A stretch of 64,000 nucleotides of DNA from Candidatus Sericytochromatia bacterium (GTDB lineage Bacteria > Cyanobacteriota > Sericytochromatia > S15B-MN24 > JAQBPE01): assembly GCA_035284745.1 (NCBI GenBank), contig JAYKIL010000021.1:9197-73196 (forward strand). Reading direction: 5' to 3'. A model generated the notes under the pieces. The model had not been told where the DNA came from and ran no database searches. It saw nothing but the letters and a program-made list of their open reading frames with translations. This document shows, piece by piece, positions 14,181 to 43,099 of this stretch. The translations under genes were made by a program, and so were the position numbers. Position 1 is the first letter of the stretch, and every line of letters begins with the position of its first letter.

Positions 14181-14310
14181 TACAAAAATCTTTAGGTTTC
14201 AGGCAACGCACGCACGAAGAGCCCCAGCACCTTTCAATCACGGGTAAGTGCTGTCCATTTCAGGTCTTTCTCCGTGTTTCAGTCATTTTTTCGTGGTATT
14301 CCATACAGCG

Positions 14311-24699: not shown

Positions 24700-25385
24700 C
24701 GCTGCGAATCTTCGAAGGCTTCGTATCCTAGAACCGAGCGCTGAAGCTCAAACAAAGCCTTGTCTTTGTGGCCTTGGGCCAAGTAAGCCCGAGCCAACAT
24801 CGCATGACCGTGTGGGGTATCCGTCAATTGTAGGTGTCGCAAGGCGTAGTCAACCGACCTGTCATACCATTTCATCGAATAGGCCGCCTGGGAGAGGTCG
24901 TAATACACTTTGGACAACGACCGCCCTGAATTGAGCCGAACCACCCCTTCCAAAACCCAAATACTTTCCGGATAACGCCCCATTCGCAAGAGCGCCCGAC
25001 CCCAGAGTGCCTGCACGTCCGCGTGGCGGTTATCTAGCTTGTAGGCGCGTTCCGCAGTCGCCGCCGCCTGAGGCCAACGTTTGAGCCTTTGAAAAAGTTG
25101 GGCGAGACGGAAGAGCGCTTCAACATTGCTGGGATCGGCCTGGATCGCAATCTGATATTCTTTGATCGCAAGGTCATACAGCCCCTCTTGGATAAAGCGT
25201 TGCGCCCGCTCAAAGAGGTCATTCGGGGAGCGCTGAGTGCGCTGCTTTTGCGTAGGTGGCGCAACCCATTCCTCTGCACCCGCAATACGCCCGCTCAGCA
25301 CGACGAGAGTGGCAGTCTGCAAAACCAAGACGGTCGCGCGGCACGTCCAAATTCTCACTGACCTTCTGCCTCTCGCCTCTCTCAT
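24696..25385 (-). CDS. Tetratricopeptide-repeat protein with N-terminal signal/anchor
   Basis: TPR-like repeats (AIKEYQIAIQADPSNVEALFRLAQLF..., WYDRSVDYALRHLQL). Start ATG overlaps the era stop (TGATG). Confidence 0.6.
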   Translation of the reverse strand: MREARGRRSVRIWTCRATVLVLQTATLVVLSGRIAGAEEWVAPPTQKQRTQRSPNDLFERAQRFIQEGLYDLAIKEYQIAIQADPSNVEALFRLAQLFQRLKRWPQAAATAERAYKLDNRHADVQALWGRALLRMGRYPESIWVLEGVVRLNSGRSLSKVYYDLSQAAYSMKWYDRSVDYALRHLQLTDTPHGHAMLARAYLAQGHKDKALFELQRSVLGYEAFEDSQR

Positions 25386-26295
25386 CAGTCCACCACGTAG
25401 CCCAGACGCTTCAACTGAAGTTTCTCGCGCCGCCAATTTTTTAGGACCTTTACCCACAATCCGAGGAAAACCTTCTCACCCAGCTGTTTTTCAATCTGGG
25501 CCCGCGCAAATTGTCCAATGGCCTTCAGGCGTTCGCCCCCGTTCCCGATGACAATCCCTTTCTGACTTTCGCGCTCGACAAAAATCGTCGCCTCAATGCG
25601 AATCGGACGTACCGTCTCGTCAAAGGTATCTATGCGAACGGCCACACTGTGAGGAATTTCGTCTGCCGTCGAGCGCAGAATTTGCTCACGGATTAACTCT
25701 GCGGACAATACCCGCAAGGTTTGATCAGTGGGCACATCCTCCTCGTAGTAGCGAGGCCCTTCGGGCAGATGCTCGACAATCGCCGTCAACAAAGAACGGG
25801 TATTGCGCCCCGTCTTCGCCGATAGAGGCACAACGGCCACGAACTGCCCCAAGGCCCGGTAACTCGCAAAGACACGCTCCGGCACCTGCCGAACACGATC
25901 AACCTTGTTCAAAACCAAAATAGTCGGTAATTCGCTTTGGGCCAGCAGTTCTGCAATGAAGGCATCCCCTTTTCCTGCCACTTCCTGCGCGTCCACCAAT
26001 AAAACCCGCAGGTCCACTTGGGATAGGGTGTCCGTTGCAGCCTTCACGATATTTTCCCCGAGAAGGTGATGGGGCTTGTGAATTCCGGGAGTATCAACGA
26101 ATACCATCTGGGCCTCGGGGGTGGAGACCACCCCTTGGATGGCGTGACGGGTGGTTTGCGGCTTGTCACTGGTGATAGCAATTTTTTGCCCGACCAAGCG
26201 ATTAATCAGGGTGCTCTTGCCCACGTTGGGGCGCCCGACAATGGCAACCAAGCCGCTTCGGAATTTCTCTTCAAGATGCTCGGAGATTTGAGACA

Positions 26296-26296
<1 letters not shown>
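25385..26296 (-). CDS. era: GTPase Era
   Basis: G1 GRPNVGKSTL, DKPQTTRH, DTPG, NKVD, C-terminal KH domain. Confidence 0.9.
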
Positions 26297-28409
<2,113 letters not shown>

Positions 28410-28469
28410 TTACGGCAAGACTCTAGTGTACAGGCTAATCGTGAGCTCCGCTCAATTGGCGCCCAGAAT

Positions 28470-29912
28470 TTAAATGGCCCGCCGGGCCACGTCCTCATTG
28501 AGTGGTTCCTGGATTTCCAAAGGCGCGGTGTGACGCCGCCAGATACGCACCCGAGAAACGCGGCGATTCTCCACTTGCTCTATCTGTAGCCGAACCCCCT
28601 CCCAAGTGACTTCCTCGCCACTCAGAGGTGCACGGCCGAGCAACCCGACCACGAACCCCCCGATCGTATCAAAATCGTCTGTAGGGAGCTGCGCACCCAA
28701 CTTCGCCGAAACATCATCGATATTGGCGCGCCCATCAACGACCAGCGTTCCATCAGACTGAAGGTCTATCTCAGCAGGCTCTTCCGCATCGTACTCGTCG
28801 CGAATCTCCCCTACAATCTCCTCCAGAATATCCTCAATGGTCACCAACCCAGCCGTACCCCCAAATTCATCCAACACGATAGCCAAATGAACCTTTTCGG
28901 TGCGCATCAACTTCAATAGCTCATCGACGCGTTTGCTTTCCGGGACGTGGAAAGGAGGTCTCACCAATTCCAAAGGAATGCTTGCCGGTCGATAATCCCC
29001 TTGCAAAACCCCTAAGAGGTCCTTGGCGTAAAGCAATCCGATGATGTTGTCGGGCGACTCCTCGTAGACCGGTATACGAGAATGACCCTCGGTAATGGCC
29101 ACACGCAAAGCTTCGTCAAAATGACAGTCGGCAGGAACGCAGACCATATCAATACGGGGAACCATAATTTCCCGCGCCGTGGTATCCCGCAGTTCAATCA
29201 CAGACTCAATCATCTCTGTCTCTTCTTGCTGCAAGCCCCCGTGTTCGCGAACGTCTGCGATCAATTGACGCAACTCGTCTTCTGCCACCAACGGCAAAGC
29301 CATTTCACCCTTAGAGCCCGAGAGCGTATTCACAAGTTGCACATAAGCTCGCGCTGCGGCCGTCAAACACCATACGGGAAACCAAAGGAGGTGGGCAGTC
29401 CAACGCAAGGGGCGCGAAACCAAAAGGGCATAGCGCTCGGCGTTGGCCGCCCCTGCCGACTTTGGGATGATCTCCGCGACCAGAACCACCAAAAAAATCA
29501 TCGCCAACGCAACGCCCGCGATCGCCAACCACGGCGCTATCGGCCACTGGGCCCAGGCCGTTCCGAAAAACCCGCGCGACATCGCCTGATAAACAGACAA
29601 CGACAGGACCGTTGAAGCAATGATGATTAGACCGTTCTCTGCCAGCAGTATCGTGCCAACCAGACGTTCCCGGGCTTGGATCAACCCCTGCAAACGCACC
29701 GCATCCTGACGCCCTTGTTCTGCAAGGTGACGAATGCGGTGCTTGCTCAACGTGATGATGGCCGCTTCAGAACTCGAGAAGAAAGCGGTACCGACGATGC
29801 AAAGCGCGACAACAAACGCAGCGGTGCCCGGTTCAATCGGAGGTACAGAAATATTGATGGCGTGCGCTAAACCGTTTGGACTGCCAGGGTCCATATCGCT
29901 CCTTCCGTTCAA
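28470..29912 (-). CDS. CNNM/CorC/TlyC-family hemolysin-like membrane protein (DUF21 + tandem CBS + CorC_HlyC)
   Basis: N-terminal 4-TM DUF21, central CBS pair (REIMVPRIDMV; NIIGLLYAKDLL), C-terminal transporter-associated domain. Confidence 0.8.
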   Translation of the reverse strand: MNGRSDMDPGSPNGLAHAINISVPPIEPGTAAFVVALCIVGTAFFSSSEAAIITLSKHRIRHLAEQGRQDAVRLQGLIQARERLVGTILLAENGLIIIASTVLSLSVYQAMSRGFFGTAWAQWPIAPWLAIAGVALAMIFLVVLVAEIIPKSAGAANAERYALLVSRPLRWTAHLLWFPVWCLTAAARAYVQLVNTLSGSKGEMALPLVAEDELRQLIADVREHGGLQQEETEMIESVIELRDTTAREIMVPRIDMVCVPADCHFDEALRVAITEGHSRIPVYEESPDNIIGLLYAKDLLGVLQGDYRPASIPLELVRPPFHVPESKRVDELLKLMRTEKVHLAIVLDEFGGTAGLVTIEDILEEIVGEIRDEYDAEEPAEIDLQSDGTLVVDGRANIDDVSAKLGAQLPTDDFDTIGGFVVGLLGRAPLSGEEVTWEGVRLQIEQVENRRVSRVRIWRRHTAPLEIQEPLNEDVARRAI

Positions 29913-29982
29913 ATTTCAGCGCCTCAACGGGACGAACTGAAACTTAAACCAACGGTGCCCTTATTATATCATAGGCCGCGCC

Positions 29983-29988
29983 GTTCGC
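29983..29988 (-). promoter_or_regulatory. Putative -10 hexamer (TATAAT on the minus strand) in the 95-bp gap upstream of the CNNM gene. The gap also contains a short inverted repeat (tttcag...ctgaaa) downstream of the YbjN-like gene
   Basis: Read directly from sequence; no convincing -35 element, so confidence is low. Confidence 0.25.
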
Positions 29989-30007
29989 TGTGAGCCGTGC
30001 GCGAGTC

Positions 30008-30502
30008 TTAAACCAGGCTGGGCGAGCACATGGCAAGAATTTCGTTATCGTGGGCATCGGCGTGGTTCACCAACGTCAAAATGGCCGCCCGGAACTCCGT
30101 GTAATCGAGATCATCGGTCGGCAAGTCAACCATCGCAAAGATTTCGCCTCCGTCCATCACGCAAAATTTTGTCAGCGGGATCAAAGCATTCAAGCGCAAA
30201 AGTCTTTCATAGACCTGCGGTTTCACGGCTGTCGGAATCTCCCGACACACCATGGTCCGGAAAGAAAGCCAACCCGGTTCGTCGATGGAAACAAACACCT
30301 CATGAACCTGCAAGTCGCCCGGGAATGCGGTTCGCCAAAGGGTTTCATCACAACGTTCAAAAGGCCAATCCAAGTCGATAAAGTACTGGTCCAGTTTTTG
30401 AGCAAGTGTCACAGAACGCTCTCCTCTATTTTTTTCGCGCTGCCTCGGGGCAGAACCACGCGGTTCAGTGTACCAAGGATTCGACGGGGCACACAACGCC
30501 AT
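30008..30502 (-). CDS. YbjN-domain protein (T3SS-chaperone-like fold, 'putative sensory transduction regulator' family)
   Basis: LDWPFERCDETLWRTAF...VSIDEPGWLSFRTMV...IFAMVDLPTDDLD is a YbjN-like pattern. ATG at 30502 lies 2 nt after the stop of the upstream Cys-rich gene. Confidence 0.55.
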   Translation of the reverse strand: MALCAPSNPWYTEPRGSAPRQREKNRGERSVTLAQKLDQYFIDLDWPFERCDETLWRTAFPGDLQVHEVFVSIDEPGWLSFRTMVCREIPTAVKPQVYERLLRLNALIPLTKFCVMDGGEIFAMVDLPTDDLDYTEFRAAILTLVNHADAHDNEILAMCSPSLV

Positions 30503-30504
30503 TC

Positions 30505-31746
30505 CTAACCGTTTCCCGATCCCAGGGCGGTGTGGCCCGCAATACGCCACTGTTCACGCCCCGTTGAATTGACGACCATCACACCGCAGCCTGTGCACAC
30601 ATTTTGTCCGCAACACGCGCAATTCACGCGGTGTTCGCGACACACGGGGTGTCCGTTCACACATTGCAACAAACACTCGCCACAGAAGGCCTGGCCGCAG
30701 ACAAAGCACGCGGCCAGTTCTCGCTCACACAACACATCGTGGCAAGCAACGCACTGTGCGCTGCAGTTGCCACAGATCAGGTGCAAATGTCGACAGGCGG
30801 TCCACTCTGACGCTTCCTTGTCACAACGCTGACAGCGGGCCCCTTCCACTTCGCCCGTTGCAAGGCTTTGCCAGGCCTGCAATTCCCGAGTCCGCGCGCG
30901 CACCGAGAGCCGCCAGCGCCACAGGCGGCCAGGCACCCGCAACGTCGCATAGCCCAATGGCCTTACGGTAATTCGCAAGTGGTGGCGTCGTGCCTCTTCG
31001 CCAAGACGTTTTGCAAGTTCGTCTTGCAAGCGCCTCTGCTCTTGCGAGGCAAGATTCAGGGCGTCCTCATAGGACTGCCCCCGGCGAACCCGAACGGGCA
31101 CCTCCTCGATCAATTCACGAAAGTAAGCTTCCAAGCGCGTCACCGTTTGCCCAAGGCGCCCGTGCGCCAGACGTTCAAAAGAGGGGACACAACGCTCGGC
31201 CTCAAGCCTGGCAAAATATTCCGCCTCAGCCAAGCGTTGCCCCGGAGGGATGGGCGGGGCGACCGTATCTTGAAACAGCAGGGTCTTTGTCTCCAAAGCG
31301 TCCCAGGCATCTGGTGCGTTTCGCCCTTCCTCATCCAGAGCCACCCGAAACAAACGCTCCACCCGTTCATCGGAGTCAAAAACCAAAGAGAAGTCATACA
31401 GCCAGAAAAACCGGTCTGACTCTTCAGGGGTCAATTCGACAAGCGCCCCATCCTTGGCTGACCAAGCGGGTGCCGGCCATTCACGCCCAGCAAGCGCAAA
31501 TTGAGCACAGCGCCCGCGCCCCGATAAATAGGCAACCATTCCCTCAAACACCCGACTGCCCGGAGCCACAAGATCCTCACCAGCGCTGGCATCTTGCCCA
31601 AAAACCAAAATCAACTCGGCACGACCAAAATGATCGGCGAGCGTGGAGGGTAACGTGACACACGCGCGTCCCGGTGCCGACGAATGCCAATCAGCACCGA
31701 AAAACGTGAAAAACTCGCGGGCAAATGCTTCGCAATCTGGGCTCAA
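30505..31746 (-). CDS. Hypothetical protein with a C-terminal dense Cys/His cluster (about 19 Cys in the last ~90 aa; multiple CxxC), likely a multi-zinc-ribbon module
   Basis: C-terminus CQRCDKEASEWTACRHLHLICGNCSAQCVACHDVLCERELAACFVCGQAFCGECLLQCVNGHPVCREHRVNCACCGQNVCTGCGV. Start ATG overlaps the SNF2 gene stop (ATGA). Confidence 0.5.
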   Translation of the reverse strand: MSPDCEAFAREFFTFFGADWHSSAPGRACVTLPSTLADHFGRAELILVFGQDASAGEDLVAPGSRVFEGMVAYLSGRGRCAQFALAGREWPAPAWSAKDGALVELTPEESDRFFWLYDFSLVFDSDERVERLFRVALDEEGRNAPDAWDALETKTLLFQDTVAPPIPPGQRLAEAEYFARLEAERCVPSFERLAHGRLGQTVTRLEAYFRELIEEVPVRVRRGQSYEDALNLASQEQRRLQDELAKRLGEEARRHHLRITVRPLGYATLRVPGRLWRWRLSVRARTRELQAWQSLATGEVEGARCQRCDKEASEWTACRHLHLICGNCSAQCVACHDVLCERELAACFVCGQAFCGECLLQCVNGHPVCREHRVNCACCGQNVCTGCGVMVVNSTGREQWRIAGHTALGSGNG

Positions 31747-33590
31747 AGAAGCCTACCCCACCCCCCCGGCGCGACCAAGCGATGCCCCGCTTCCCGCATG
31801 CCTTCATAACGCTGGCGTGCCAAAAGCCCCCGCTCGGCGGCCGACAACATCGTATCCGACCACTCTTCATCGCTGCTGGCCGATGCCCAAGAATCCAGCA
31901 CCCAATCTTCGAACGACTTGCGCTGCTCCCAATCACCCAGAATCACATCCAGTTCCCCAACAACCAATTCGAAAAGACGGATTTTTGTCCCAAGCAACTC
32001 CAAAAGGGCCATCTCAATGGTGTTCTCAAATGCCAGATTGATAATTGTCACCGGATGAATTTGCCCCAACCGATGGAGGCGTCCAATGCGTTGCTCCACA
32101 CGCATTGGATTCCACGGCAAGTCAAAATTCAGCAACGTGTGACAAAACTGCAAATTAAGGCCTTCTTGACCACTTTCCGTGCTGATCATAACCCGTGCCC
32201 CTCGCGAAAATTCAGCGACTGCCTGGGTTCGCTGCTCTGCGCTGAGGCTTCCGTGAAAGACGACGACATCATAACCTTGCGAGCGGAGAAAATCTGCCAA
32301 AACGACCTGGCTCCGTCGAAATTCTGTGAATACCAACATTTGACTGTCTGGCTCGCGTTGCAGACATTCCACCACAGCCTGCATCTTGCGACCCACGGGA
32401 ATCCCACGCGCCATGGCGGCATACCCGGCGAGTCGCCCACAAATCTCGGGCTCGAGGGCCTCATCATCGATCAGGGCCTCGAGGGTTCCCGCCACAGCCG
32501 CTGGGGTACTTGTCAGGCCTCGCTGCAGCACACTCAGGGTTAATCTCAGGTGCCCTTGATCGGGATGCGAACGCAATTCCTCGCGAATAAATGCCGTCAG
32601 CTCCGAATACAGCCTTGCCTCATCCGGCGGAAAAACCAAATGATAAATCCCGGCCCGTCGTGGGGGCAGTCGGAGCCCCACAGAGTCTCTGCGATTACGA
32701 ACCATGACCCCTGCAAGGCGCTTTCTTAAATCGTCTTCATTCAGCGGCGCACGAGGATCTCCCCCATCCATATAGGTCGCTTCAAACGTCCTGGGGGTTC
32801 CCAATTCGCCCTCTGCAAGAAGATTCACCAGGGCATACAGCTCACTGAGATCATTCATTACGGGCGTCGCCGTGAGCAACAAGAGATAACGCTTGTTCAA
32901 GCGACTCACCAGTTGGTGTGCCTGGGTCTGACGCGACTTTAACTTATGAGCCTCATCAACAATCACGACATCAAAGGCCTGCGCCAACGCTAATGCCGCG
33001 TGGCGGGGTTGCTTAGCCAAGTCCAGAGACGCAATCAAACGAGACCCACTCCAGTCACTTTGTTTCCGTACAACCCTAAAGCGTTCATCAAACTTCTGCT
33101 CTAATTCCTCAAGCCATTGCCAGGTCAAAGCGGCCGGCGCCAGAACCAAAACCCGGTGAGCAAGGCCCCGAACAATGAGTTCCTTCAGGATCAAACCCGC
33201 CTCAATCGTTTTACCGAGACCCACCTCATCCGCCAGAATGGCTCGCCCCCGCATTTGCCCCAAGACCCTTAAAGCAACGGCTTGTTGATGGGGATGATGC
33301 TCGATGTGACACGCATTCAGACACAACAAGTGCTCGAACCCCGTATGCACCCTCAACGAGTCAGCCACATGGCGTAAACGAAACAACTGACCGGATTCCT
33401 GGGGCCAACCCGTCGCCACCGGAACCGTATCAATGCGAGTTGGAAGCGCCAGCGCAGGTGAAACAGGGTGCGGTGGCTCATCCCGTATGGCTGCGGGAAT
33501 AGGCCGTGAAGCAATCTCCCCTGCGGGACTCTGTACCTTATTAGACCCCGCCTCTGGCCGAAGGTCTAACCATTCAAAACGCTCCAACAC
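31743..33590 (-). CDS. SNF2/RapA(HepA)-family DNA-dependent ATPase/helicase
   Basis: SF2 motifs I GLGKTIEAGL, II DEAHKLK, III LLLTATPVMN, helicase-C block MLVFTEF...GQEGLNLQ, VI QRIGRLHRLGQ. Confidence 0.85.
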   Translation of the reverse strand: MLERFEWLDLRPEAGSNKVQSPAGEIASRPIPAAIRDEPPHPVSPALALPTRIDTVPVATGWPQESGQLFRLRHVADSLRVHTGFEHLLCLNACHIEHHPHQQAVALRVLGQMRGRAILADEVGLGKTIEAGLILKELIVRGLAHRVLVLAPAALTWQWLEELEQKFDERFRVVRKQSDWSGSRLIASLDLAKQPRHAALALAQAFDVVIVDEAHKLKSRQTQAHQLVSRLNKRYLLLLTATPVMNDLSELYALVNLLAEGELGTPRTFEATYMDGGDPRAPLNEDDLRKRLAGVMVRNRRDSVGLRLPPRRAGIYHLVFPPDEARLYSELTAFIREELRSHPDQGHLRLTLSVLQRGLTSTPAAVAGTLEALIDDEALEPEICGRLAGYAAMARGIPVGRKMQAVVECLQREPDSQMLVFTEFRRSQVVLADFLRSQGYDVVVFHGSLSAEQRTQAVAEFSRGARVMISTESGQEGLNLQFCHTLLNFDLPWNPMRVEQRIGRLHRLGQIHPVTIINLAFENTIEMALLELLGTKIRLFELVVGELDVILGDWEQRKSFEDWVLDSWASASSDEEWSDTMLSAAERGLLARQRYEGMREAGHRLVAPGGWGRLL

Positions 33591-33595
33591 GCCGA

Positions 33596-35086
33596 CTAAA
33601 CCCCAGGGGGCCCCTCAACCGCCCACTCTCGCCGCTCAGTGGAAACCCCGGTGCTTCCATTCGCCCACCGCGCGTACCCCCGCGCCCAGGTCCGAGATGC
33701 TTCCAGTGCCTCGTTTCCGCGCGCCAAGGGAGTGAGGCGCGCGAAAGCACGTGCCACATCCCCGGGTTCCACGGCGCGCCCCTCATCAAAAGCATCATAC
33801 AACGCATCAATGATCCCCTGCTCCAACTCCGCACCCGAGAACCCCTGGGTCTCGGCCGCCAAGCTCACCACCGCCGCCTTTTCAAATTCCCGGTGGCGTT
33901 GTTGCAGGTGCAAAGCCAAAATTTCTGCCCGTTCCCGTTCGTCGGGAAGGTCTACGAAAAAAATTTCGTCAAAGCGCCCTTTGCGCAAGAGTTCAAGCGG
34001 CACACGAGAAAGATCGTTGGCGGTCGCCACCACAAAAACAGGGGAGCGCTTTTCTTGCAACCAAGTCAAAAACGTGGCTAGCACTCGTGCTGAGGTTCCG
34101 CCATCCCCTGCAGCGCTGGCCAGGGCTTTTTCGACCTCATCGACCCACAACACAACGGGACTGACGCTTTCAGCCACCTTTAATGCCCTGCGAGTGTTTT
34201 CCTCTGACGCGCCCACCAAACCCGCCATCAGACGCCCCACATCCAAACGCAGCAAAGGCAGGCCCCACTGGCGACTGACACTTTTTGCAACGAGGCTTTT
34301 GCCGCACCCCGGAGCCCCCAACAAAAGCAGACCGCGGGGTTCAGGAAGACCAAAAGAGCGCGCCTCTCGGCCAAAAGCACGCCCGCGTTTTCTCAACCAC
34401 TCCTTCAGTCCCGCCAGTCCCCCTATCTCATCGAGCGAACCCGCCAATTCGATGTGTTCCAATACCCCCGTCTTACTTACAACCCGGCGCTTCTCCTCTG
34501 TCATCACCTCTATCAAGCGATGGTCGAGTGCTCCGTGTAAGACCAAGGCCCGCGCCAAGCCATTGGCAATTTCAGCGGCGGTCAGCCCACGGGCCGCGGC
34601 CAAAAAACGCTCGTGATCCAGGGGATCTAACTTCAACGGTCGACCTGCCAACTGCCCAGCCTGGGCCAGCATCTCTATCACCGAGTCCGAGTCGGGCGTC
34701 GCAAAATCGACCAAGGTGACCTCAGCGCTCACCTCCGGAGGAAGATTAACAACCGGGCTCAACAAAATGACCGCCTTCGCGCTGTGCTTAACCGTATGCC
34801 CCAATTCCCGCAACTTTCTCACCACCAGCGCGTTCCCCAAAAAAGCGTGAAAATCGCAAAAAACGTAGATTCCCCGCCCAGTTGCCTCTTTCACATAATC
34901 CAAAGCCAGGATCGGATCGCGCAAAGACGGCTCACCCGTAAAACCACTCGTCGCAGACCACAAATGCACCTCTCGGCTGAGGCGCTGGGCCAACAGCCTC
35001 AGTTCGGCAACGGCCCGCTCCTCCTCCGGCGTATGAAGATAGAGGAGCGGGTACCGGGCGCGGAGAAGCGTTTCAAGCTCTGTCAA
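33596..35086 (-). CDS. Classic-clade AAA+ ATPase with ~230-aa N-terminal domain
   Basis: Walker A GAPGCGKS, Walker B VLWVDEVEKA, SRH ATANDLSRVPLELLRKGRFDEIFFVDLPDERERAEIL. Stop lies 5 nt from the SNF2 gene start. Confidence 0.8.
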   Translation of the reverse strand: MTELETLLRARYPLLYLHTPEEERAVAELRLLAQRLSREVHLWSATSGFTGEPSLRDPILALDYVKEATGRGIYVFCDFHAFLGNALVVRKLRELGHTVKHSAKAVILLSPVVNLPPEVSAEVTLVDFATPDSDSVIEMLAQAGQLAGRPLKLDPLDHERFLAAARGLTAAEIANGLARALVLHGALDHRLIEVMTEEKRRVVSKTGVLEHIELAGSLDEIGGLAGLKEWLRKRGRAFGREARSFGLPEPRGLLLLGAPGCGKSLVAKSVSRQWGLPLLRLDVGRLMAGLVGASEENTRRALKVAESVSPVVLWVDEVEKALASAAGDGGTSARVLATFLTWLQEKRSPVFVVATANDLSRVPLELLRKGRFDEIFFVDLPDERERAEILALHLQQRHREFEKAAVVSLAAETQGFSGAELEQGIIDALYDAFDEGRAVEPGDVARAFARLTPLARGNEALEASRTWARGYARWANGSTGVSTERREWAVEGPPGV

Positions 35087-35109
35087 AATTCCACCCGCCG
35101 TTGTCTTTC

Positions 35110-36060
35110 TTAACGAGAGCGAACCGCCGCGACACCCGCAGACCGTAATGCGATTTGTGCCGCCCCGATGACCCCCGCCTCCTCGCCCAAAGCAGCCTCT
35201 TGCAGCAATTCAGGGGCAAAACCGCGCTCTCCCGACACCTGGGGGTCTTTCAATGCCCGACGAACAAGATCCAGATAACCCGGCCGGGTCGCCACTCCCC
35301 CTCCGAGCAGGTACAGGTCAACATCTACCAGGCTGCTCAGGGAAACAAGCCCCTGGGCCAAACAGCGGGCGCTGAACGCCAAAACCTCCTGCATGGCGAC
35401 GTCACCCCTCTCGGCTGCAGCGAAGACAGCGCGCGCGTCTCCGGAAAAACCCGGACGGGTTTCACGTGCCAAGCGCGCGATCGCAGTCCCCGATACATAG
35501 GCCTCAAGGCAACCCGTCTGGCCACAATTACAACGCACGCCGTCGCCGAACAAAACCATGTGACCAATCTCAGCGCCCCGCCAGTGGCGCCCCCTCCAAA
35601 TCGAATGATTGAGAATCAGGCCCCCTCCAACCCCGGTTCCCACGGTGATCGCCACAATGCTTGGCGCACCGCGGCCCGCTCCACAGGCCCATTCGCCGAA
35701 AGCCGCCGCGTTGGCATCGTTCTCGACGAAAACCGGCACCCCCAACGCGGCCTGCAGGTGTGGTCCGACGGGCGTTCCCGTCCACCCCGAAATGTTCGGA
35801 GAAGCATAAGCCACGACCCCGTTATCAACGTCGATCTGGCCCGCAGCACTCACCCCAACGGCCACCAGGGCCCGGTGGTCCTCGACGGAGAGTCCCCCCA
35901 TCGCCTCACGCGCCCCGGCCACCAAGGCATCGAGGACAGCACCGGCACCTGCCCGCGCTGGAGTATCGAGGCGGCATCGGGCCACCACGCGCCCTTCGGC
36001 GTCACTCACACAAGCAAGAATTTTGGTTCCCCCGACGTCAAGCCCCAACGCCAAACTCAT
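35110..36060 (-). CDS. ROK family sugar kinase (glucokinase / N-acetylhexosamine kinase-like)
   Basis: LGLDVGGTKI N-terminus and ROK zinc motif CNCGQTGCLEAYVSG. Confidence 0.8.
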   Translation of the reverse strand: MSLALGLDVGGTKILACVSDAEGRVVARCRLDTPARAGAGAVLDALVAGAREAMGGLSVEDHRALVAVGVSAAGQIDVDNGVVAYASPNISGWTGTPVGPHLQAALGVPVFVENDANAAAFGEWACGAGRGAPSIVAITVGTGVGGGLILNHSIWRGRHWRGAEIGHMVLFGDGVRCNCGQTGCLEAYVSGTAIARLARETRPGFSGDARAVFAAAERGDVAMQEVLAFSARCLAQGLVSLSSLVDVDLYLLGGGVATRPGYLDLVRRALKDPQVSGERGFAPELLQEAALGEEAGVIGAAQIALRSAGVAAVRSR

Positions 36061-36750
36061 TTAGCCGTTCTCCTGTCTCGGACACGCTCTGGCAAAACCC
36101 GCTGTAATGAGCTGAGGCCGTGTGATGGCCGACCCGACCACCACAGCCCACGCCCCCATAGCAAAAGCCCTCGCCACGTGTGACGGCTCAGCCACGCGGC
36201 CCTCCATCAGCACCGGCACCCGGAGCGATGCCAGCATCTTCGCCAAAAGATCCCAATCCGGTTCCCGCGGCACAGGCCCTGTTCCCGTGTAACCCGAAAG
36301 CGTTGGAGCAACTGCCGCCGCCCCGGCGGCCTCGGCCGCCAAAGCCTCCTCGACGGTACTGACATCAGCCAAAACAGGACGCCCCAGTTCATGGTGCACC
36401 CCTTGAATCAGCTCACCCACCGGAACCGGCCGTTTGCGGTGAGTGGCATCTACCGCTACGACATCCGCGCCGGCGCGCACAACCGCACGCGCGTCATCCA
36501 ACGTGGGCGTGATATATACGCCCTGCTCCCCCCGCTTCCAAAGCCCGATCAACGGAACCGACACCGACTCCCGAATCGCCGCAATATCAGTCGGGCTCTC
36601 GCAGCGGACTCCCGCCGCACCACCCGCCACCACAGCCCTGGCCATCGCCGCCATGTAGGCCGCTCCGTGCAAAGGCTCATGCGATTGAGCTTGACAAGAC
36701 ACCACCAGACACCCGCGCAAAGACTGAAATACGTCAGATTTTTCCCCCAT
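36061..36750 (-). CDS. nanE: Putative N-acetylmannosamine-6-phosphate 2-epimerase
   Basis: LVVSCQAQSHEPLH... TIM-barrel NanE signature; 229 aa; immediately upstream of the ROK kinase. Confidence 0.8.
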   Translation of the reverse strand: MGEKSDVFQSLRGCLVVSCQAQSHEPLHGAAYMAAMARAVVAGGAAGVRCESPTDIAAIRESVSVPLIGLWKRGEQGVYITPTLDDARAVVRAGADVVAVDATHRKRPVPVGELIQGVHHELGRPVLADVSTVEEALAAEAAGAAAVAPTLSGYTGTGPVPREPDWDLLAKMLASLRVPVLMEGRVAEPSHVARAFAMGAWAVVVGSAITRPQLITAGFARACPRQENG

Positions 36751-36762
36751 CTGCCACCTCCG

Positions 36763-39633
36763 CTAACCGATCGCGACACCCGGTGGCAGCACCTTTTCCA
36801 GAAATCGCCCTGTGTGACTGCCGGCCACGCGACTTACATCCCGGGGTGTCCCACTCGCGACCAGTGTTCCGCCACGGTCCCCCCCTTCGGGGCCTAGATC
36901 CAACAACCAATCAGCTTGCCGGATGATGTCCAGGTTATGTTCAATGACCAGCACCGTGTTTCCGGCGTCTACCAGGCGATTTAAGACCTCCAACAACTTT
37001 TCCACATCGTAGAAACTCAAACCCGTAGAAGGCTCGTCCAGAATGTAAAGGGTTTTCCCCGTGGAACGTCGGGCCAACTGCTCTGCCAGCTTAATTCGCT
37101 GCGCCTCGCCGCCCGACAAGGTGGTGGCGGGCTGGCCCAGCTGGATGTACTCCAAGCCTACATCGAACAAAGTTTGCAATTTGTTGCGCGCCCTGGGCAC
37201 GGCCTCAAAAAACGACAGCGCTTCCTCAACCGTCATCGCCAGCACGTCGGCGATATTTTTTCCCTTAAACCTAACATCCAAGGTTTCTCGGTTGTAGCGA
37301 CGCCCCTTACACACATCGCAAGGGACGTATACATCGGGAAGAAAGTGCATTTCAATCACATTGACCCCTTCCCCCTTGCACGCCTCACAACGTCCGCCTT
37401 TGACATTGAAAGAAAACCGGCCCGGCGTGTATCCCCGCGCCTTGGCTTCGGTCGTCATGGAGAAAACCTCTCGCAGATGATCAAACAACCCGGTGTAAGT
37501 CGCCGGATTCGAGCGCGGAGTTCGTCCGATGGGTGCTTGGTCTATGACAATAAACTTATCGAGTTCCTCCACACCGGACACTGCCCGAACACCCTTTAAT
37601 TTACTGGCTCCAGAGCTATGTCCCGCCTCCAGATACTGGTACAAAACATCATGCACCAACGTGCTTTTCCCAGAACCCGACACGCCTGTGACACACACAA
37701 AACATCCCAGCGGAATGTCCACGCTCACATCCTGTAAATTGTTTTTGCGCGCCCCCTCGATACGCAAAGTACGGCCATTACCCGCCCGCGTTTGGGCGGG
37801 AACAGGGATAGAACGGGCCCCTGACAGGTATTGCCCCGTCAGCGATTCTTTTTCCGCGCACACATCCGCCAATGTCCCTTGAGCAACCACCCTGCCGCCG
37901 TGAACCCCCGCTCGTGGACCAATATCCACGATATGGTCCGCCAGCCGAATGGTGTCCTCATCATGCTCAACCACAATCAAGGTATTGCCCAGATCCCGCA
38001 AACGAAACAGGGTGGCAAGCAAGCGTTCGTTATCGCGCTGATGCAGACCAATCGAAGGTTCATCCAAGATGTAAAGAACGCCTTGCAGGCCCGACCCTAT
38101 TTGGGTGGCAAGACGAATTCGCTGAGCCTCGCCCCCTGACAACGTATTGGCAGCACGGTCCAAAGACAGGTAATCCAGACCGACATCGTTCAGAAAACCC
38201 AGGCGAGCGGTCACCTCTCTTAAGATTTGGGCGGCAATCAGCTGCTGCCGAGGTGTCAACGCCAGGTTCAAAAAAAACGGAAGCGCATCTCGAACACTCA
38301 AAGACGTAAGTTCCGCTATAGACGCTCCGGCAACCCTCACCGCCAACGCTTCCGGGCGCAGCCGGTTCCCCCCACAGGCCTCGCAAGGTGTTGAAGCCAT
38401 ATAGGACTCTACCTCCTGCTTAAAGCGTTCGCTCGTCGCTTCTTGGTAGCGGCGCTGCAAACTCGGGATGACACCCTCATACCGGGTGTAATAGGCATCC
38501 TGCCCCTCCTGAAACCAGCTGGGTTGCCGGATTAAAAACCGCTCATCTCCTGCTCCAAAAAGAACAATGTGTTGCACACCTTTGTCCAATTCCTCCCAAG
38601 GTGTATCCACACAGAAGCCCAACCCAGACGACACAGCCGACAAAAGCTCAAGGTAATAAGGATTAGAGGTCTTGGCCCAAGGATGAATGGCCCCTCCTCT
38701 TAAACTTTTACGCTGATCAGGGACAATTAAATGGGGATCGATCTCTTGTTTGGCCCCCAGACCGTGACAAACGGAGCACGCGCCAAACGGGCTATTAAAG
38801 GAGAATAAGCGCGGCGCGATTTCTTCCACACTGGTTCCGCAATCTGCACAGGCCAAATGTTCCGAAAAAATTCGATCCGCCTCCTCTGAGGGGGCCTCGC
38901 GGGTGCCCAGAATCTGAACAGCTACAATACCGTCTGCCTGTTGTAAGGCAGTGGCTAAAGAATCCGCGAGCCGGGTCGCCTGATCAGGGCGAATGACAAT
39001 TCGATCCACGACGACCGCAATCTCGTGTTTTTTGTTCTTGTCCAAGGTCGGCACCTCGGACAAGTCATATACCGCCCCATTCACTCGAACCCGAACAAAA
39101 CCAGCCTTGCGAGCCGCATCGAAAACTTTTTCGTGGGTCCCCTTCTTTCCGCGAACCAAAGGAGCCAAAACCTGAAGACGTGTTCCCTCCCCCAAAGCCA
39201 ATAACTGGTCGACAATCTGCTCCACCGCCTGAGGGTTGATAACCTTTCCGCAGCGAAAGCAGTGTGGCGTGCCTACACGTGCAAACAGCAGCCTCAGGTA
39301 ATCGTAAATTTCGGTCACCGTACCCACTGTTGAACGTGGGTTGTGACTGGTTGACTTTTGATCAATCGAAATAGCTGGCGACAGCCCTTCGATATAGTCG
39401 ACGTCCGGCTTATCGAGTTGCCCGAGGAACTGTCGCGCGTAGGCGGAGAGGCTCTCAACGTAGCGTCTTTGCCCCTCCGCAAAAATGGTGTCAAACGCCA
39501 ATGACGACTTGCCCGAGCCGGAAACGCCCGTAAAAACGACCAACTGATCCCGTGGAATCAGAAGTTCGAGATCCTTGAGATTATGTTCTCGGGCTCCCTT
39601 GACGTGTAGATAGGAGCGATCCAAAGGATTCAC
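36763..39633 (-). CDS. uvrA: Excinuclease ABC subunit A
   Basis: Two ABC ATPase modules ([15 protein letters not shown]; [15 protein letters not shown]), zinc-finger Cys pairs, 956 aa. Confidence 0.95.
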
Positions 39634-40061
39634 CGAAACCTTCCTGAAGCCAACGTGCTCACGGGCCCCATCACACGGGCATTTTGCTTGACCTGTATCA
39701 CCTCGAACAACGGCGGGCCCAATAATAGCAAACCAACCAACAGGGCATTGGCCGCGCTCACCAACACGGCGGCCGCCGCGACATCCTTGGCGATTTTGGC
39801 AAGCGGATGCTTGCGATGTGTGAATAAATCCACCGCATTCTCAATGGCCGTGTTGAGCATCTCCATCGTCACCACCAACGAACTCACCACCGCAATCAAG
39901 GCCAAATGAAAAAAGGGTATCCGCAACCAAGCACCCAAAGCCATCGCCAGCACCCCCGCCGCCACGTGAATTCGCATGTTTCGCTCGGTGCGAAGGCAAA
40001 AATAGATGCCCGCGAACGCAAAACGAAAACTGGCAAGAAGATTCTCGGCCTTGAACCTCAC
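39630..40061 (-). CDS. dgkA: Diacylglycerol kinase / undecaprenol kinase family membrane protein
   Basis: 3-TM DgkA-like pattern ([16 protein letters not shown]). 4-nt overlap with uvrA. Confidence 0.8.
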
Positions 40062-40621
40062 CGCGAACCTCGCCTGCGCCGACCTGCAGAAGGGCGTTCC
40101 CGCCCCGGAAGTTCCAACCCCTCAGGCGCGATCAACGTCGGACCTTCGAAGCCCAAAACGCGTAGTAACTCAATTTGACGGGCCCACATTTTCGACTGCC
40201 GTTGCGGGGTGTCGTGGTCCTCACCAAGCAAGTGCAGCAACCCATGCACGGACAACAAGGCCAACTCAGCATCCAGGTCATGCCCTCGGGCGCGGGCCTG
40301 CTCATTCGCCACATCGACCGCCACAACAACATCGCCCAGAAGGCGTGGCGCCTCCTCACCCGCCTCACCCGGCACATCCTCCAAGGCAAATGCCAAAACG
40401 TCGGTGGGCTTGTCGACACCCCGATATTCACGGTTAAGATCGTGAATCGCCGCCTCATCCACCCACGTGACGCCCCATTCGTCCAATGGCCCCAGGTTGC
40501 ACGCAGCGTGCAAATCTTCAAGACGTTTCAACCAGACCTTTTCATCCAGCGACTGGGATTGTTCGTTATTTAGATAGACCGGCAACCTTGCGTCCCTTCG
40601 CATCCAATTCTGGGCCACCAC
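40058..40621 (-). CDS. ybeY: rRNA maturation endoribonuclease YbeY
   Basis: Zinc motif SVHGLLHLLGEDHD and upstream DVLAFA...GDVVV. The ORF is somewhat long for YbeY; the real start may be internal. Confidence 0.8.
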   Translation of the reverse strand: MVAQNWMRRDARLPVYLNNEQSQSLDEKVWLKRLEDLHAACNLGPLDEWGVTWVDEAAIHDLNREYRGVDKPTDVLAFALEDVPGEAGEEAPRLLGDVVVAVDVANEQARARGHDLDAELALLSVHGLLHLLGEDHDTPQRQSKMWARQIELLRVLGFEGPTLIAPEGLELPGRERPSAGRRRRGSR

Positions 40622-42098
40622 CGCCCCTCAACTCCCGAAACACCTGATCAGGATATTCAATCCGCTGATGGAACAGGCCGGACAAGATACGGATAAATGC
40701 CCCGGCAATTTTCTCTATTTCTTTCAAAGTGAGCGGCGCCTCCGAAAGCTCTCCATCGGATAAACGCGTATCCACAATTTTCCTGACCATTCCCTCAATT
40801 TGTTCCGGCGTCGGGTTTTTCAAAGAGCGACACGCAGCTTCCACCCCGTCAGCCAGCATCACAATTCCAGTCTCGCGTGTTCGCGGGCGAGGACCGGGGT
40901 AACGGAAATGGTCCTCTTGTACCTGCCGATGCCCCTCCGCCTGGACCGCCTGATGGTAGAAAAAGGAGACCAAGCTGGTTCCGTGGTGAGTAGAAATAAA
41001 ATCCTGAATAATGGCGGGCAGTTTGTGTTCACGCGCCATTTCGAGACCTTCCTTCACGTGCGCTGTAATCACAAGGGCCGAGAGTCGTGGGGAGATTCTG
41101 TCGTGCTGATTCGCCATCCCGAGTTGGTTTTCCACAAAAAAGTAGGGGCGCTTGGTCTTTCCAATGTCGTGATAGTACGCGCCCACCCTCACAAGCAATG
41201 CGTCCGCTCCAATCGCTTCGGCGGCAGCCTCGGCCAGGTTTCCAACCAAAATCGAATGATGGTAAGTCCCCGGCGCTTTCATCTGAAGTTCGCGCAGCAG
41301 CGGTTGACTCGGATTGGCAAGCTCCAACAACTTAAAGGTTGTGGTAATGCCGAACAGGTCTTCAACCAAAGGCAAGAAACCAACGACCAGAATGGCGGAC
41401 GCCAACCCGGATCCCGCAGCCGCAACCGCATGAAGGCCCCACACCGTCCATGAAAGGCCCTCCAGGCTGAACAGCGCTGTCACCGTCCACGCCGACACCA
41501 AGGCAGCGATTAACCCCGCGCGAAAAACGTCGTATCGTTGCTGCACGCGGCTCACGGCGTACACTGCCACAATGACACTCAGCAGTGTCGCCAGCGTCGA
41601 ATTGGCATCGTGACCCGGCAGCTGCGCCGAAAAAAGTCCCAACGGCAAAGATGCGATCAATGCGACCCGCCCATTGGCAAAAACGGTGAGAAGCATCCCA
41701 CACGCCACCAAGGGAGACGCATAAGGATTCAGCTTCAATGCGCTCAGTGCCCAAGCAAAAGCCAGGGTCCCGACCACTACAAGGCTAATCAGGTACAAAT
41801 GGCGGATCGAGTTCACAGTGGTTGGTTCAAACTGGCGCAAGTAGGCGACCACCAGCGCCAAGGCGGTGCCCAACACCATGAGCAAGCCGCCAATGGGCAA
41901 CCACGTGCCTTGAGTCGCCGCCTCAAAAAATCGCGGTTGCGCCATCAACAGCACCAAGAACGTGAGTCCACCCGCAAACAAGACATTCAGGGCCTGGTGA
42001 GTCACGGGCTGCAACGCCATGGACTGAAGCCACGGCGGAACCAGGCGACGCGCCAGGCGCAAAATATTATCGGTCATGAGGGATGTCGCGCCTCCCAA
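40566..42098 (-). CDS. 7TM-receptor with intracellular HD hydrolase (PgpH/YqfF-like HDIG phosphodiesterase)
   Basis: Seven N-terminal TM helices, then HD domain HHSILVGNLAEAAAEAIG...YYHDIGK. Confidence 0.8.
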   Translation of the reverse strand: MGGATSLMTDNILRLARRLVPPWLQSMALQPVTHQALNVLFAGGLTFLVLLMAQPRFFEAATQGTWLPIGGLLMVLGTALALVVAYLRQFEPTTVNSIRHLYLISLVVVGTLAFAWALSALKLNPYASPLVACGMLLTVFANGRVALIASLPLGLFSAQLPGHDANSTLATLLSVIVAVYAVSRVQQRYDVFRAGLIAALVSAWTVTALFSLEGLSWTVWGLHAVAAAGSGLASAILVVGFLPLVEDLFGITTTFKLLELANPSQPLLRELQMKAPGTYHHSILVGNLAEAAAEAIGADALLVRVGAYYHDIGKTKRPYFFVENQLGMANQHDRISPRLSALVITAHVKEGLEMAREHKLPAIIQDFISTHHGTSLVSFFYHQAVQAEGHRQVQEDHFRYPGPRPRTRETGIVMLADGVEAACRSLKNPTPEQIEGMVRKIVDTRLSDGELSEAPLTLKEIEKIAGAFIRILSGLFHQRIEYPDQVFRELRGGGGPELDAKGRKVAGLSK

Positions 42099-43099
42099 GC
42101 AGCATAGGCCTGCACAATTCTTCTCACAAGATCGTGGCGCACCACGTCTTGATCGTCAAATCGAACAAATGCAACGTCATGGACCCCGGCCAACAGACTC
42201 TGAATGTCGTGTAAAGCCGAACGCTTCCCACGAGGCAAATCAATCTGGGTTTGATCCCCCGTCACCACCACACGTGAACCGGCCCCCATACGAGTCAAAA
42301 ACATCTTCATTTGCTCACCGGTGGTATTCTGCGCCTCGTCTAAAATTATGAAGGCATCTGTGAGCGTGCGTCCCCGCATGTAGGCCAAAGGGGCCACTTC
42401 GATCATACCCCTCTCCAAATGCCGAGAAACCCGTTCAGCATCCATCAGTTCATACAATGCGTCGTAAAGGGGACGGAAGTAAGGGTCAACCTTGGCCTGG
42501 AAATCACCGGGCAAGAACCCCAAACTCTCACCCGCCTCAACCGCAGGCCGCGTCAGGATAATCCTGGATACGCGTTTTTCACTCAACGCGCGCACCGCCA
42601 AGGCCACCGCAAGAAAAGTCTTGCCCGTGCCGGCAGGTCCCAACCCAAAGGTCAGCGTGTGCTGTTCAATGGCACGCACATACACCAATTGATTCGCTGA
42701 ACGGGTCTTTACCGGCTTCCCCCGATAAGTGCGAGCGACAACATCGTCCAATACGTCCGTGAGTGTGCCCGCCGGTTGCCCTTGCGCCAAATAGAAATAT
42801 CCCCGCAATTCATCGGAGGTCAAAACCTCCCTGTCGCGCGCGCGCGGCAAAAGCGTCGTCATCACCTGCTCGACCATTCGCACCGCTTCCGGTTCGCCCT
42901 TGACCGTCAAATGCTCGCTCCCAAGGAAGGTCGTGACCGGAAGAATCGACTCGAGAAAGGCGAGGTTCTCCTCTCTCAGGCCGCACAACCACTGTGCGAT
43001 GTGCGGAGTTGGCAAAGCGATGACAATCTCAGCTTCTTGATTTGAAGACAAACAACCCTCTGGGCACAACACCCCATAAAAAAAGAACGACAGAGCCAA
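42074..43099 (-). CDS. phoH: PhoH-family ATPase (YbeZ-like)
   Basis: P-loop GPAGTGKTFLAVALAV and PhoH block ILTRPAVEAGESLGFLPGD...DPYFRPLYDAL. Confidence 0.85.
   Translation of the reverse strand: MALSFFFYGVLCPEGCLSSNQEAEIVIALPTPHIAQWLCGLREENLAFLESILPVTTFLGSEHLTVKGEPEAVRMVEQVMTTLLPRARDREVLTSDELRGYFYLAQGQPAGTLTDVLDDVVARTYRGKPVKTRSANQLVYVRAIEQHTLTFGLGPAGTGKTFLAVALAVRALSEKRVSRIILTRPAVEAGESLGFLPGDFQAKVDPYFRPLYDALYELMDAERVSRHLERGMIEVAPLAYMRGRTLTDAFIILDEAQNTTGEQMKMFLTRMGAGSRVVVTGDQTQIDLPRGKRSALHDIQSLLAGVHDVAFVRFDDQDVVRHDLVRRIVQAYAAWEARHPS

Follow-up and report, generated by a model that had tools for sequence, protein, structure and literature searches.

The window, a stretch of 64,000 nucleotides from a Candidatus Sericytochromatia bacterium (contig JAYKIL010000021.1), contains four consecutive minus-strand open reading frames (ORFs) at positions 30008-35086, which encode an AAA ATPase, an SNF2 protein, a cysteine-rich (Cys-rich) protein and a YbjN-like protein and are hereafter named the quartet. 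Briefly, the SNF2 and Cys-rich proteins together look like Escherichia coli RapA split into two polypeptides, with the Tudor-like N-domain missing and a variable zinc-ribbon array added, as judged from profile comparisons and a structure model. We favour, with moderate confidence, the reading that the quartet encodes a split RapA-like remodeller of the YqhH-YqhG type with AAA and YbjN-like accessories, which would remove or recycle RNA polymerase (RNAP) or other DNA-bound proteins. An earlier reading of this DNA, referred to as the original prediction, had described the four consecutive genes, which are indeed present in the ORF list of the window, and had proposed that they could be a novel defence or nucleic-acid-remodelling module.

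The SNF2 protein and its cysteine-rich partner

The SNF2 gene (31743..33590, minus strand) starts with GTG in the ORF list and encodes 615 residues. Motifs I-VI are readable in its sequence (DEVGLGKT, DEAHKLK, LLLTATP, STESGQEGLNLQ and EQRIGRLHRLGQ), and Pfam identifies the SNF2-rel_dom (E 5e-30) and Helicase_C (E 3e-24) domains, in agreement with the RapA/HepA type proposed originally. RapA is the top profile match of the protein in the Protein Data Bank (PDB; E 4e-63), with the match beginning at about RapA residue 117. BLASTP against E. coli RapA aligned residues 156-331 and 527-667 with 34-37% identity in the conserved blocks. The cut-off of the RapA equivalog in NCBIfam (NF003426) was not reached (199.1 bits versus 576). 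The protein ends at the equivalent of about RapA residue 700, and the Spacer and C-terminal domain (CTD) are not in the same polypeptide. The Tudor-like N-domain of RapA is autoinhibitory, and its Spacer/CTD-like part helps docking onto RNAP. To our knowledge, RapA is the sole bacterial Swi2/Snf2 enzyme with an understood mechanism.

The Cys-rich gene (30505..31746, minus strand; TTG start in the ORF list) encodes 413 residues. Residues 1-295 (30862..31746, minus strand) are predicted to form an alpha/beta domain with a long helical hairpin and a beta sheet, and this part constitutes the YqhG-superfamily region according to the model, hhalign and Foldseek. Residues 305-401 (30544..30834, minus strand) form a putative zinc-ribbon or B-box-like knuckle array. 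Exactly 19 Cys and 5 His were counted in ~85 residues of this tail, matching the roughly 19 Cys plus several His noted before, and 15 of these positions do not vary among 19 homologues. The AlphaFold model of the protein has a predicted local distance difference test score (pLDDT) of 87.7, with values of 89-95 in the array, which is modelled as short beta hairpins. Only weak B-box/RING matches were obtained for the array.

Foldseek comparison of this model with the PDB gave three significant matches, all of them E. coli RapA (8so8, 6bog and 8spg; E 3-5e-6, ~305 columns), and no other SNF2 or RecA-like structure was among them. Since no such structure was matched and 8so8 lacks the N-domain, the similarity would lie in the RapA-specific C-terminal parts. 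A family profile of 232 sequences matched E. coli RapA at residues 711-793 (E 1.7e-5) and was the only one to give a signal, whereas three family alignments compared with the single RapA sequence by hhalign reached no significance. With a RapA C-terminal profile as the target, hhalign returned a probability of 92.7% (E 4.4e-7, 218 columns), placing Cys-rich residues 2-252 colinear with RapA ~709-954. Therefore, the two genes taken together extend over RapA from its ATPase core as far as the C-terminus (156-667 plus ~709-954). The likeness of the Cys-rich protein to DrmB and its DUF1998 domain, on which the original prediction drew, has to be given up: the protein belongs to the YqhG superfamily and shares homology with the C-terminal region of RapA. 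The Spacer (D744) touches the zinc-binding domain of the beta' subunit in the RapA-RNAP structure (PMC8501970). The sequences of the RapA C-terminal profile were taken from chromosomes mislabelled as plasmids; PLSDB "plasmids" of 3.6-5.4 Mb (NZ_OL790811.1, NZ_AP026896.1, NZ_CP077849.1 and others) are evident whole chromosomes with rapA. A metagenome scan with the RapA C-terminus recovered only E. coli-like sequences of 91-100% identity.

The Bacillaceae partners of such SNF2 proteins belong to Pfam YqhG (PF11079, "unknown function"; E 1e-118 to 1e-127), and hhalign aligned the Cys-rich family with Bacillaceae YqhG over residues 1-256 (probability 96.9%, E 1.5e-10). Direct matches to PF11079 were found for 8 of 49 family members, with a best E of 4.1e-9, and the Cys-rich protein of the window gave no match to PF11079 even at E<=10 (gathering threshold 25 bits). 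Because the homology is established via profiles and intermediate members, the protein can be assigned to the YqhG superfamily only, and not to the Pfam YqhG family. The SNF2 and Cys-rich genes are thereby identified, at the level of sequence homology, as the counterpart of the Bacillus yqhH-yqhG pair. With a word-indexed search, the Cys-rich protein had no more than seven relatives; exhaustive profile searching gave 1072 cluster representatives at E<=1e-3, and 543 when the limit was E<=1e-10, with mostly full-length matches. The named members are all labelled hypothetical. They share the N-terminal ~300 residues, followed by a variable CxxC array with 0 to 102 Cys. Many long members (P0254-P0307) end in a further beta domain of ~80 residues (RYxWR...N..Y.VY.G....VV.D..G), which the Sericytochromatia proteins lack. 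The possibility that the YbjN-like protein corresponds to this domain was rejected, as the two are unrelated.

The conserved adjacency of the pair was examined by scanning GTDB genomes with the SNF2 alignment, which yielded at least 80 loci and represents a sample, not a census. In nearly all loci listed, a partner with the N-terminal profile of the Cys-rich family lies directly downstream of the SNF2 gene. By clustering, a same-strand partner is directly downstream in 75 of the 89 SNF2 loci listed, with a median gap of -3 nt and typically a 4-nt overlap, and the overlapping frames are thus conserved across phyla. The loci listed come from Bacillota, Chloroflexota, Planctomycetota, Actinomycetota, filamentous Cyanobacteria, Gemmatimonadota and deltaproteobacterial lineages, and among the archaea from Nitrosopumilus, Woesearchaeota, Pacearchaeota and Promethearchaeota. 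Archaeal pairs of SNF2 and YqhG-like genes were seen in L059 (Nitrosopumilus), in L073, L085 (Promethearchaeota) and L087, an Asgard metagenome-assembled genome (MAG) being among these genomes. A literature search found no paper tying YqhG to RapA or describing the quartet. Three points are new as bioinformatic inferences: the kinship of YqhG with the RapA C-terminus, the recurrent coupling to the AAA, and how large and widespread the YqhG superfamily is.

The AAA and YbjN-like proteins

The AAA gene (33596..35086, minus strand; TTG start, 496 residues in the ORF list) encodes the canonical motifs attributed to it earlier, all readable in the sequence: Walker A (GAPGCGKS), Walker B (VLWVDEVEK) and the second region of homology (SRH; ATAN...RKGRFD). 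Pfam places an AAA domain at residues 253-379 (E 5.9e-27, 95 bits), with a weak AAA_lid_3 match. The active AAA domain, comprising Walker A, Walker B, SRH and lid, spans residues 243-480 (33647..34360, minus strand) according to the sequence, Pfam and the PDB match. Residues 1-235 (34382..35086, minus strand) correspond to an AAA+ fold without P-loop, i.e., a pseudo-D1 with a helical lid. The top PDB sequence match is the D2 domain of Cdc48/p97 (E 1e-51). By its motifs and matches, the protein is best described as a tandem classic-clade AAA with a degenerate D1 and an active D2. Full-length homologues of 48-76% identity occur in Sericytochromatia and Caldilineaceae, those of 48-50% being common in Caldilineaceae and other lineages.

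Linkage of the AAA and SNF2 genes recurs in Sericytochromatia, in Chloroflexota (loci L007, L008, L010, L174 and L175, where a YqhG-like gene was not seen), in locus L012 and in Planctomycetota (L017, with AAA, SNF2 and Cys-rich genes). At the N-terminus of the SNF2 protein, 95 residues consist of a short ERFEWL motif and a Pro-rich linker; the alignment shows the peptide ERFEWLDL (33561..33584, minus strand; family ERFEWL[ED][ILV]), after which the linker is variable. Among 93 loci scored, 10 have the motif, all of them in the AAA-linked Sericytochromatia/Caldilineaceae clade, and it is absent from 80 AAA-less and 3 AAA-linked loci. This association of motif and AAA is confounded by phylogeny and may serve only as a lead. 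The SNF2 proteins of Caldilineaceae and Armatimonadota (P0150-P0247) carry a zinc ribbon of their own after ERFEWLEIP (GKRCPQCGW...CFRCGYRY), which is not present in the Sericytochromatia proteins; the place of the zinc-binding element, in the SNF2 protein or in its partner, thus seems to shift. The Caldilineaceae-type AAA is always preceded by a protein of 380-480 residues (L008 431-1573, L010 574-2010, L174 8695-9855 and L175 8491-9753). Neither these proteins nor the 237-residue protein of L012 matched Pfam or the profile of the Cys family, and the former may replace the YqhG-like partner in Caldilineaceae.

The AAA family is also found in viruses. PHROG 8638 matches the AAA protein over its full length (E 4.6e-126), and relatives with the N-domain included occur in 134 viral contigs; cultured Rhizobium, Mycobacterium and Vibrio phages carry the AAA. 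In the viral loci, SNF2 genes are rare (4/70) and YqhG-like genes absent. The phage AAA genes (L176-L255, AAA at ~8001-9500) have as neighbours a protein of ~137 residues in 22 of 70 loci, one of ~62 residues in 14 and a radical-SAM protein of ~210 residues in 17. In L012, where the order is a 237-residue protein, AAA, SNF2 and a Cys-rich protein of 771 residues, Pfam identifies DUF2997, DUF1257 and radical SAM after the AAA-SNF2-Cys trio (13022-14202), resembling the phage set. The AAA together with the DUF2997/DUF1257/radical-SAM set looks like an uncharacterised conserved cassette.

These other associations bear on the alternative that the SNF2 and YqhG-like pair is the sole functional unit, with the AAA and YbjN-like genes as chance neighbours in a dense operon-like run, which we consider unlikely on balance. 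It would be consistent with the 80 of 93 SNF2 loci that have neither AAA nor motif, with the restriction of the YbjN-like gene to Sericytochromatia-type loci and with the close spacing of the entire phoH-era minus-strand run in which the quartet lies. The AAA furthermore has other recurrent partners, DUF2997 and DUF1257 in L012 and similar small proteins in 14-22 of 70 viral loci. However, AAA-SNF2 adjacency is seen in at least three phyla, in some loci with wholly different flanks, and at least 13 contigs are common to the lists of the top 120 AAA and the top 120 SNF2 homologues. The spacing also argues for a connection, with an AAA-SNF2 gap of 5 nt in the window and of 2-3 nt or an overlap in the related contigs L003, L005 and L006, and the quartet of Sericytochromatia remains intact where divergent genes part it from the upstream ROK gene.

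The YbjN-like gene of the quartet (30008..30412, minus strand) encodes ~134 residues from GTG 30412, as placed by Pfam and homologue N-termini. The resemblance to YbjN suggested originally passes the Pfam threshold (PF10722, 32.4 bits versus 22), and TY-Chap1 was matched just under its cut-off of 27 (26.0 bits, E 7.8e-6). The protein is predicted to have a type III secretion system (T3SS) chaperone-like fold. Among the loci listed, a YbjN-like gene stands beside the module only in those of the Sericytochromatia type.

Gene layout, inheritance and the question of defence

The junctions of the quartet were read directly. The AAA gene stops with TAG at 33598-33596 and the SNF2 gene begins 5 nt on, with GTG at 33590, as the original prediction had it. 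The overlap claimed for the SNF2 and Cys-rich genes is also real, although its letters are TTGA, formed by the SNF2 TGA and a TTG start, and not ATGA. For the last junction, an in-frame ATG at 30502 does fall 2 nt past the TAG of the Cys-rich gene, as stated before, but as a start codon it is probably not used. GTG 30412, 92 nt past the Cys-rich stop, is the most likely start of the YbjN-like gene because of the homologue starts, the ribosome-binding site and the gaps in relatives: four of five homologues start at this position in the alignment, a strong Shine-Dalgarno-like sequence read directly (AGAGGAGAG, 30419..30427, minus strand) lies 6 nt upstream of the GTG, and the called Cys-rich/YbjN-like gaps in relatives are 54-102 nt. 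The N-terminal consensus of the homologues is M..A.K.D.YFI.L.WPFE, and the alignment of the shorter L006 homologue begins slightly further in, at the conserved D.YFI motif. The AAA and SNF2 genes are spaced by 2-3 nt or overlap in L003, L005 and L006 as well. Near-zero spacing thus holds for the first two junctions and is not peculiar to the quartet, since the upstream uvrA, nanE and ROK genes are equally close-packed and ROK ends 23 nt ahead of the AAA start. The gap of about 95 bp reported after the module is correct when measured to the TTG of the corC-like ORF (95 nt) and amounts to 113 nt when measured to its better ATG. Scans for promoters and terminators stayed below shuffle expectation, and no Rfam families or tRNAs were found in the window.

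The SNF2 protein is 100% identical to one in a Candidatus Sericytochromatia MAG. Sericytochromatia are a non-photosynthetic sister group of Cyanobacteria. By Pfam, the gene order is phoH, pgpH-like 7TM-HD, ybeY, dgkA, uvrA, nanE, ROK, the quartet (AAA, SNF2, Cys-rich and YbjN-like), corC, pyrG, cdd and era, and this minus-strand run (window 25385-43099) is close-spaced throughout. The genes phoH, pgpH, ybeY and dgkA, with cdd and era, form what we take to be a conserved housekeeping cluster in Bacillus. The block of uvrA, nanE, ROK, quartet, corC and pyrG interrupts the phoH-era cluster between dgkA and cdd, and L001 and L006 are alike in this. Elsewhere in the window, a very long minus-strand ORF of 1662 residues lies at 7706-12694.

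The quartet occupies the same slot (uvrA-nanE-ROK-quartet-corC-pyrG) in four other contigs (L001, L003, L005 and L006). Two of these belong to NCBI MAGs, of which one bears the name Candidatus Sericytochromatia; the others are a JGI metagenome contig and an ENA contig with the label Sericytochromatia. Three of the four have a divergent SulP transporter and beta-carbonic anhydrase inserted between ROK and AAA (L003 3927-6489, L005 1038-6519 and L006 5351-7398; absent from the window), and the quartet is intact; in two of these three the insertion is followed by an ORF of 114 residues. Because its genes stay together despite this insertion, the quartet is a unit of its own, and in this respect the earlier suggestion that the four genes belong together is supported. 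Identities between the window and the four contigs are 64-67% for AAA, 61-66% for SNF2, 62-70% for the YbjN-like protein and 39-45% for the Cys-rich protein, and those of the flanking proteins are 62-67% for ROK and 68-72% for both NanE and CorC. The GC content is flat across the region and the same in quartet and flanks. Given the flat GC, the shared synteny and the flank-like divergence, the quartet was inherited vertically with its neighbourhood and is no recent insertion.

This inheritance weighs on the proposal of a novel anti-phage or anti-plasmid system, in which, by analogy with DISARM, BREX, Dpd and Iet, the SNF2 protein would act on or sense foreign DNA, the zinc ribbon would serve as sensor and the AAA as effector or regulator. 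The best PADLOC matches could point this way, namely BrxHI (2.8e-80) and DrmD (1.8e-73) for the SNF2 protein and IetA (1e-20) for the AAA, as could the fast evolution of the Cys-rich partner with its zinc array of 0 to 102 Cys, the patchy occurrence of the pair over many bacterial phyla and archaea, and the abundance of the AAA family in phage genomes. However, the matches to BrxHI, DrmD, DpdE, ZorD and IetA in PADLOC and NCBIfam are partial and cover generic helicase or AAA cores only, and the NCBIfam scores are far under their cut-offs (DrmD 244 versus 950 and 225 versus 610; IteA 69.6 versus 510). PADLOC, NCBIfam and PHROGs returned nothing for the Cys-rich and YbjN-like proteins, in line with the earlier statement that the combination was not recognised as a named system. 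Pfam analysis of the flanks found no methylase, nuclease, PLD, DUF1998, PglZ or protease nearby. As for the individual systems, DrmA, DrmB (DUF1998), DrmC and the methylase of DISARM were not found, the neighbours being ROK, NanE, UvrA, CorC and PyrG; PglZ, BrxC and PglX of BREX are not among the ten flanking ORFs (26296-29912 and 35110-43099); and no IetS-type serine protease adjoins the AAA gene.

The genomic setting also speaks against defence. The locus is syntenic with divergence and GC like its flanks, there is no tRNA or integrase context at the quartet, the Bacillaceae copies of yqhH-yqhG have a recurring chromosomal neighbourhood, and viral contigs lack the Cys-rich family, which has one weak match among 72,556 plasmids. 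We therefore regard a defence system as quite improbable. An insertion of the module at the end of the housekeeping run, as had been supposed, is not supported, given the same GC and synteny, the flank-like divergence and the lack of a nuclease, methylase, DUF1998 or mobile-element gene nearby, and a chromosomal housekeeping or stress function is the most likely one for the quartet. On present evidence, the locus should not count as a new defence system, which removes a false lead.

Proposed function and comparison with known systems

In the split RapA-like reading that we favour, the SNF2 and YqhG-like proteins would form one complex translocating on DNA, which would dislodge or recycle RNAP or other tight DNA-protein complexes after stress or damage. 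The zinc-ribbon array may add nucleic-acid or protein contacts. The tandem AAA, with an inactive D1-like ring and a Cdc48/Vps4-like D2, would serve as a segregase or unfoldase, with either the stalled substrate or the remodeller as its target, perhaps via the ERFEWL peptide at the SNF2 N-terminus, and the YbjN-like protein, by analogy with secretion chaperones, could hold a stretch of extended chain in one of its partners. The AAA and YbjN-like genes would have been recruited to the core pair in Sericytochromatia. RNAP recycling by RapA-like proteins, entered in the original prediction as a caveat, thus proves a better lead than defence. In the literature, B. subtilis YqhH goes under the name "HepA" and is grouped, as a Swi2/Snf2 translocase that is poorly characterised, with RNAP-interacting enzymes (PMC7385302).

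Several observations weigh against this reading. The SNF2 protein lacks the Tudor-like N-domain (RapA residues 1-107), the Foldseek match to RapA has a global TM of only 0.21 with a different domain arrangement, and the RapA C-terminal profile is shallow, being built from five gammaproteobacterial sequences, one per species. In B. subtilis, deletion of yqhH (hepA) left the lethality of PcrA depletion unsuppressed, whereas mfd inactivation suppresses it (PMC7385302). The AAA is absent from 80 of the 93 SNF2 loci scored (up to ~10 kb on each side) and is therefore dispensable for the core function; most Caldilineaceae loci have an AAA-linked SNF2 gene with no YqhG-like partner nearby, and the other usual phage neighbours of the AAA family are DUF1257-like, DUF2997-like and radical-SAM proteins. 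Finally, the Cys-rich protein diverges much faster than the other quartet proteins and the pair is spread patchily over phyla, both of which are traits of conflict systems too.

The target may also be other than RNAP, with the pair acting as a DNA-repair or fork remodeller, or as an extractor of DNA-protein crosslinks together with an AAA segregase, and the RapA likeness reflecting shared ancestry only. Knocking out yqhH in B. thuringiensis causes UV sensitivity, and its product hydrolyses ATP (PMC10054049). In the window, uvrA is the third gene upstream, and those related loci that show uvrA have it within four to seven genes; a Deinococcus YbjN-like protein partners the SSB-like repair protein DdrB (PMC3575483), and the absent RapA N-domain would fit as well. 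However, the uvrA linkage may be incidental, as nanE and ROK intervene; mutation of rapA in E. coli does not cause UV sensitivity (PMC8501970); and Pfam and NCBIfam found no nuclease, protease or lesion-recognition domain in the four proteins. We hold such a target to be improbable.

For the split RapA-like remodeller, a bolder version can be put forward, which we rate as rather unlikely: the YqhG superfamily would be the missing second subunit of short YqhH-type SNF2 proteins in an ancient two-subunit RapA-like remodeller, coupled to a Cdc48-like AAA segregase in Sericytochromatia, Chloroflexota and Planctomycetota, with the zinc array and the YbjN-like protein as substrate adaptors. If true, this would be a prokaryotic counterpart of the eukaryotic p97-plus-SNF2 (CSB-type) machinery that extracts stalled RNAP or trapped proteins from DNA. 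Collectively, the locus suggests that the sampled YqhH-like short SNF2 proteins of Bacillota, Cyanobacteriota, Actinomycetota, Planctomycetota and some archaea may work with a separately encoded equivalent of the RapA C-terminus, a partner at present annotated as hypothetical or as Pfam YqhG. This gives a testable role to B. subtilis yqhG and to a family whose cluster representatives exceed 1000. The recurrent tandem-AAA linkage points to a possible bacterial segregase that clears protein roadblocks from DNA.

Among known systems, DISARM and BREX likewise place an SNF2-type helicase beside a metal-binding protein; here the DrmD and BrxHI models are only partly matched and the Cys-rich protein is not DUF1998. 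Compared with the type II classic-clade unfoldases Cdc48, p97 and VAT, the AAA protein differs in having a first tier without P-loop, no double-psi-barrel N-domain and only 496 residues. JGI records name some close AAA homologues "SpoVK/Ycf46/Vps4 family", and the putative likeness to Ycf46-type AAAs consists of these record names and of DUF1257, called ycf35 (PMC4284462), and DUF2997 near the L012 trio. For Ycf46, links with the circadian clock and with carbon concentration have been described, but none with SNF2 proteins (bioRxiv 10.1101/2025.07.21.665879). RapA holds the ATPase core and the Spacer/CTD in one polypeptide behind a Tudor-like N-domain, whereas the quartet has two polypeptides colinear with RapA, no such N-domain in its SNF2 protein, an appended 19-Cys zinc-ribbon array, and tandem AAA and YbjN-like genes alongside. 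Bacillaceae YqhG is shorter (~265 residues) and has no zinc array, and the Bacillaceae loci have no AAA or YbjN-like gene. The Bacillus yqhH-yqhG pair nevertheless has the same plan as the core of the quartet, a compact SNF2 gene followed by a same-strand partner, and the two partner families are homologous.

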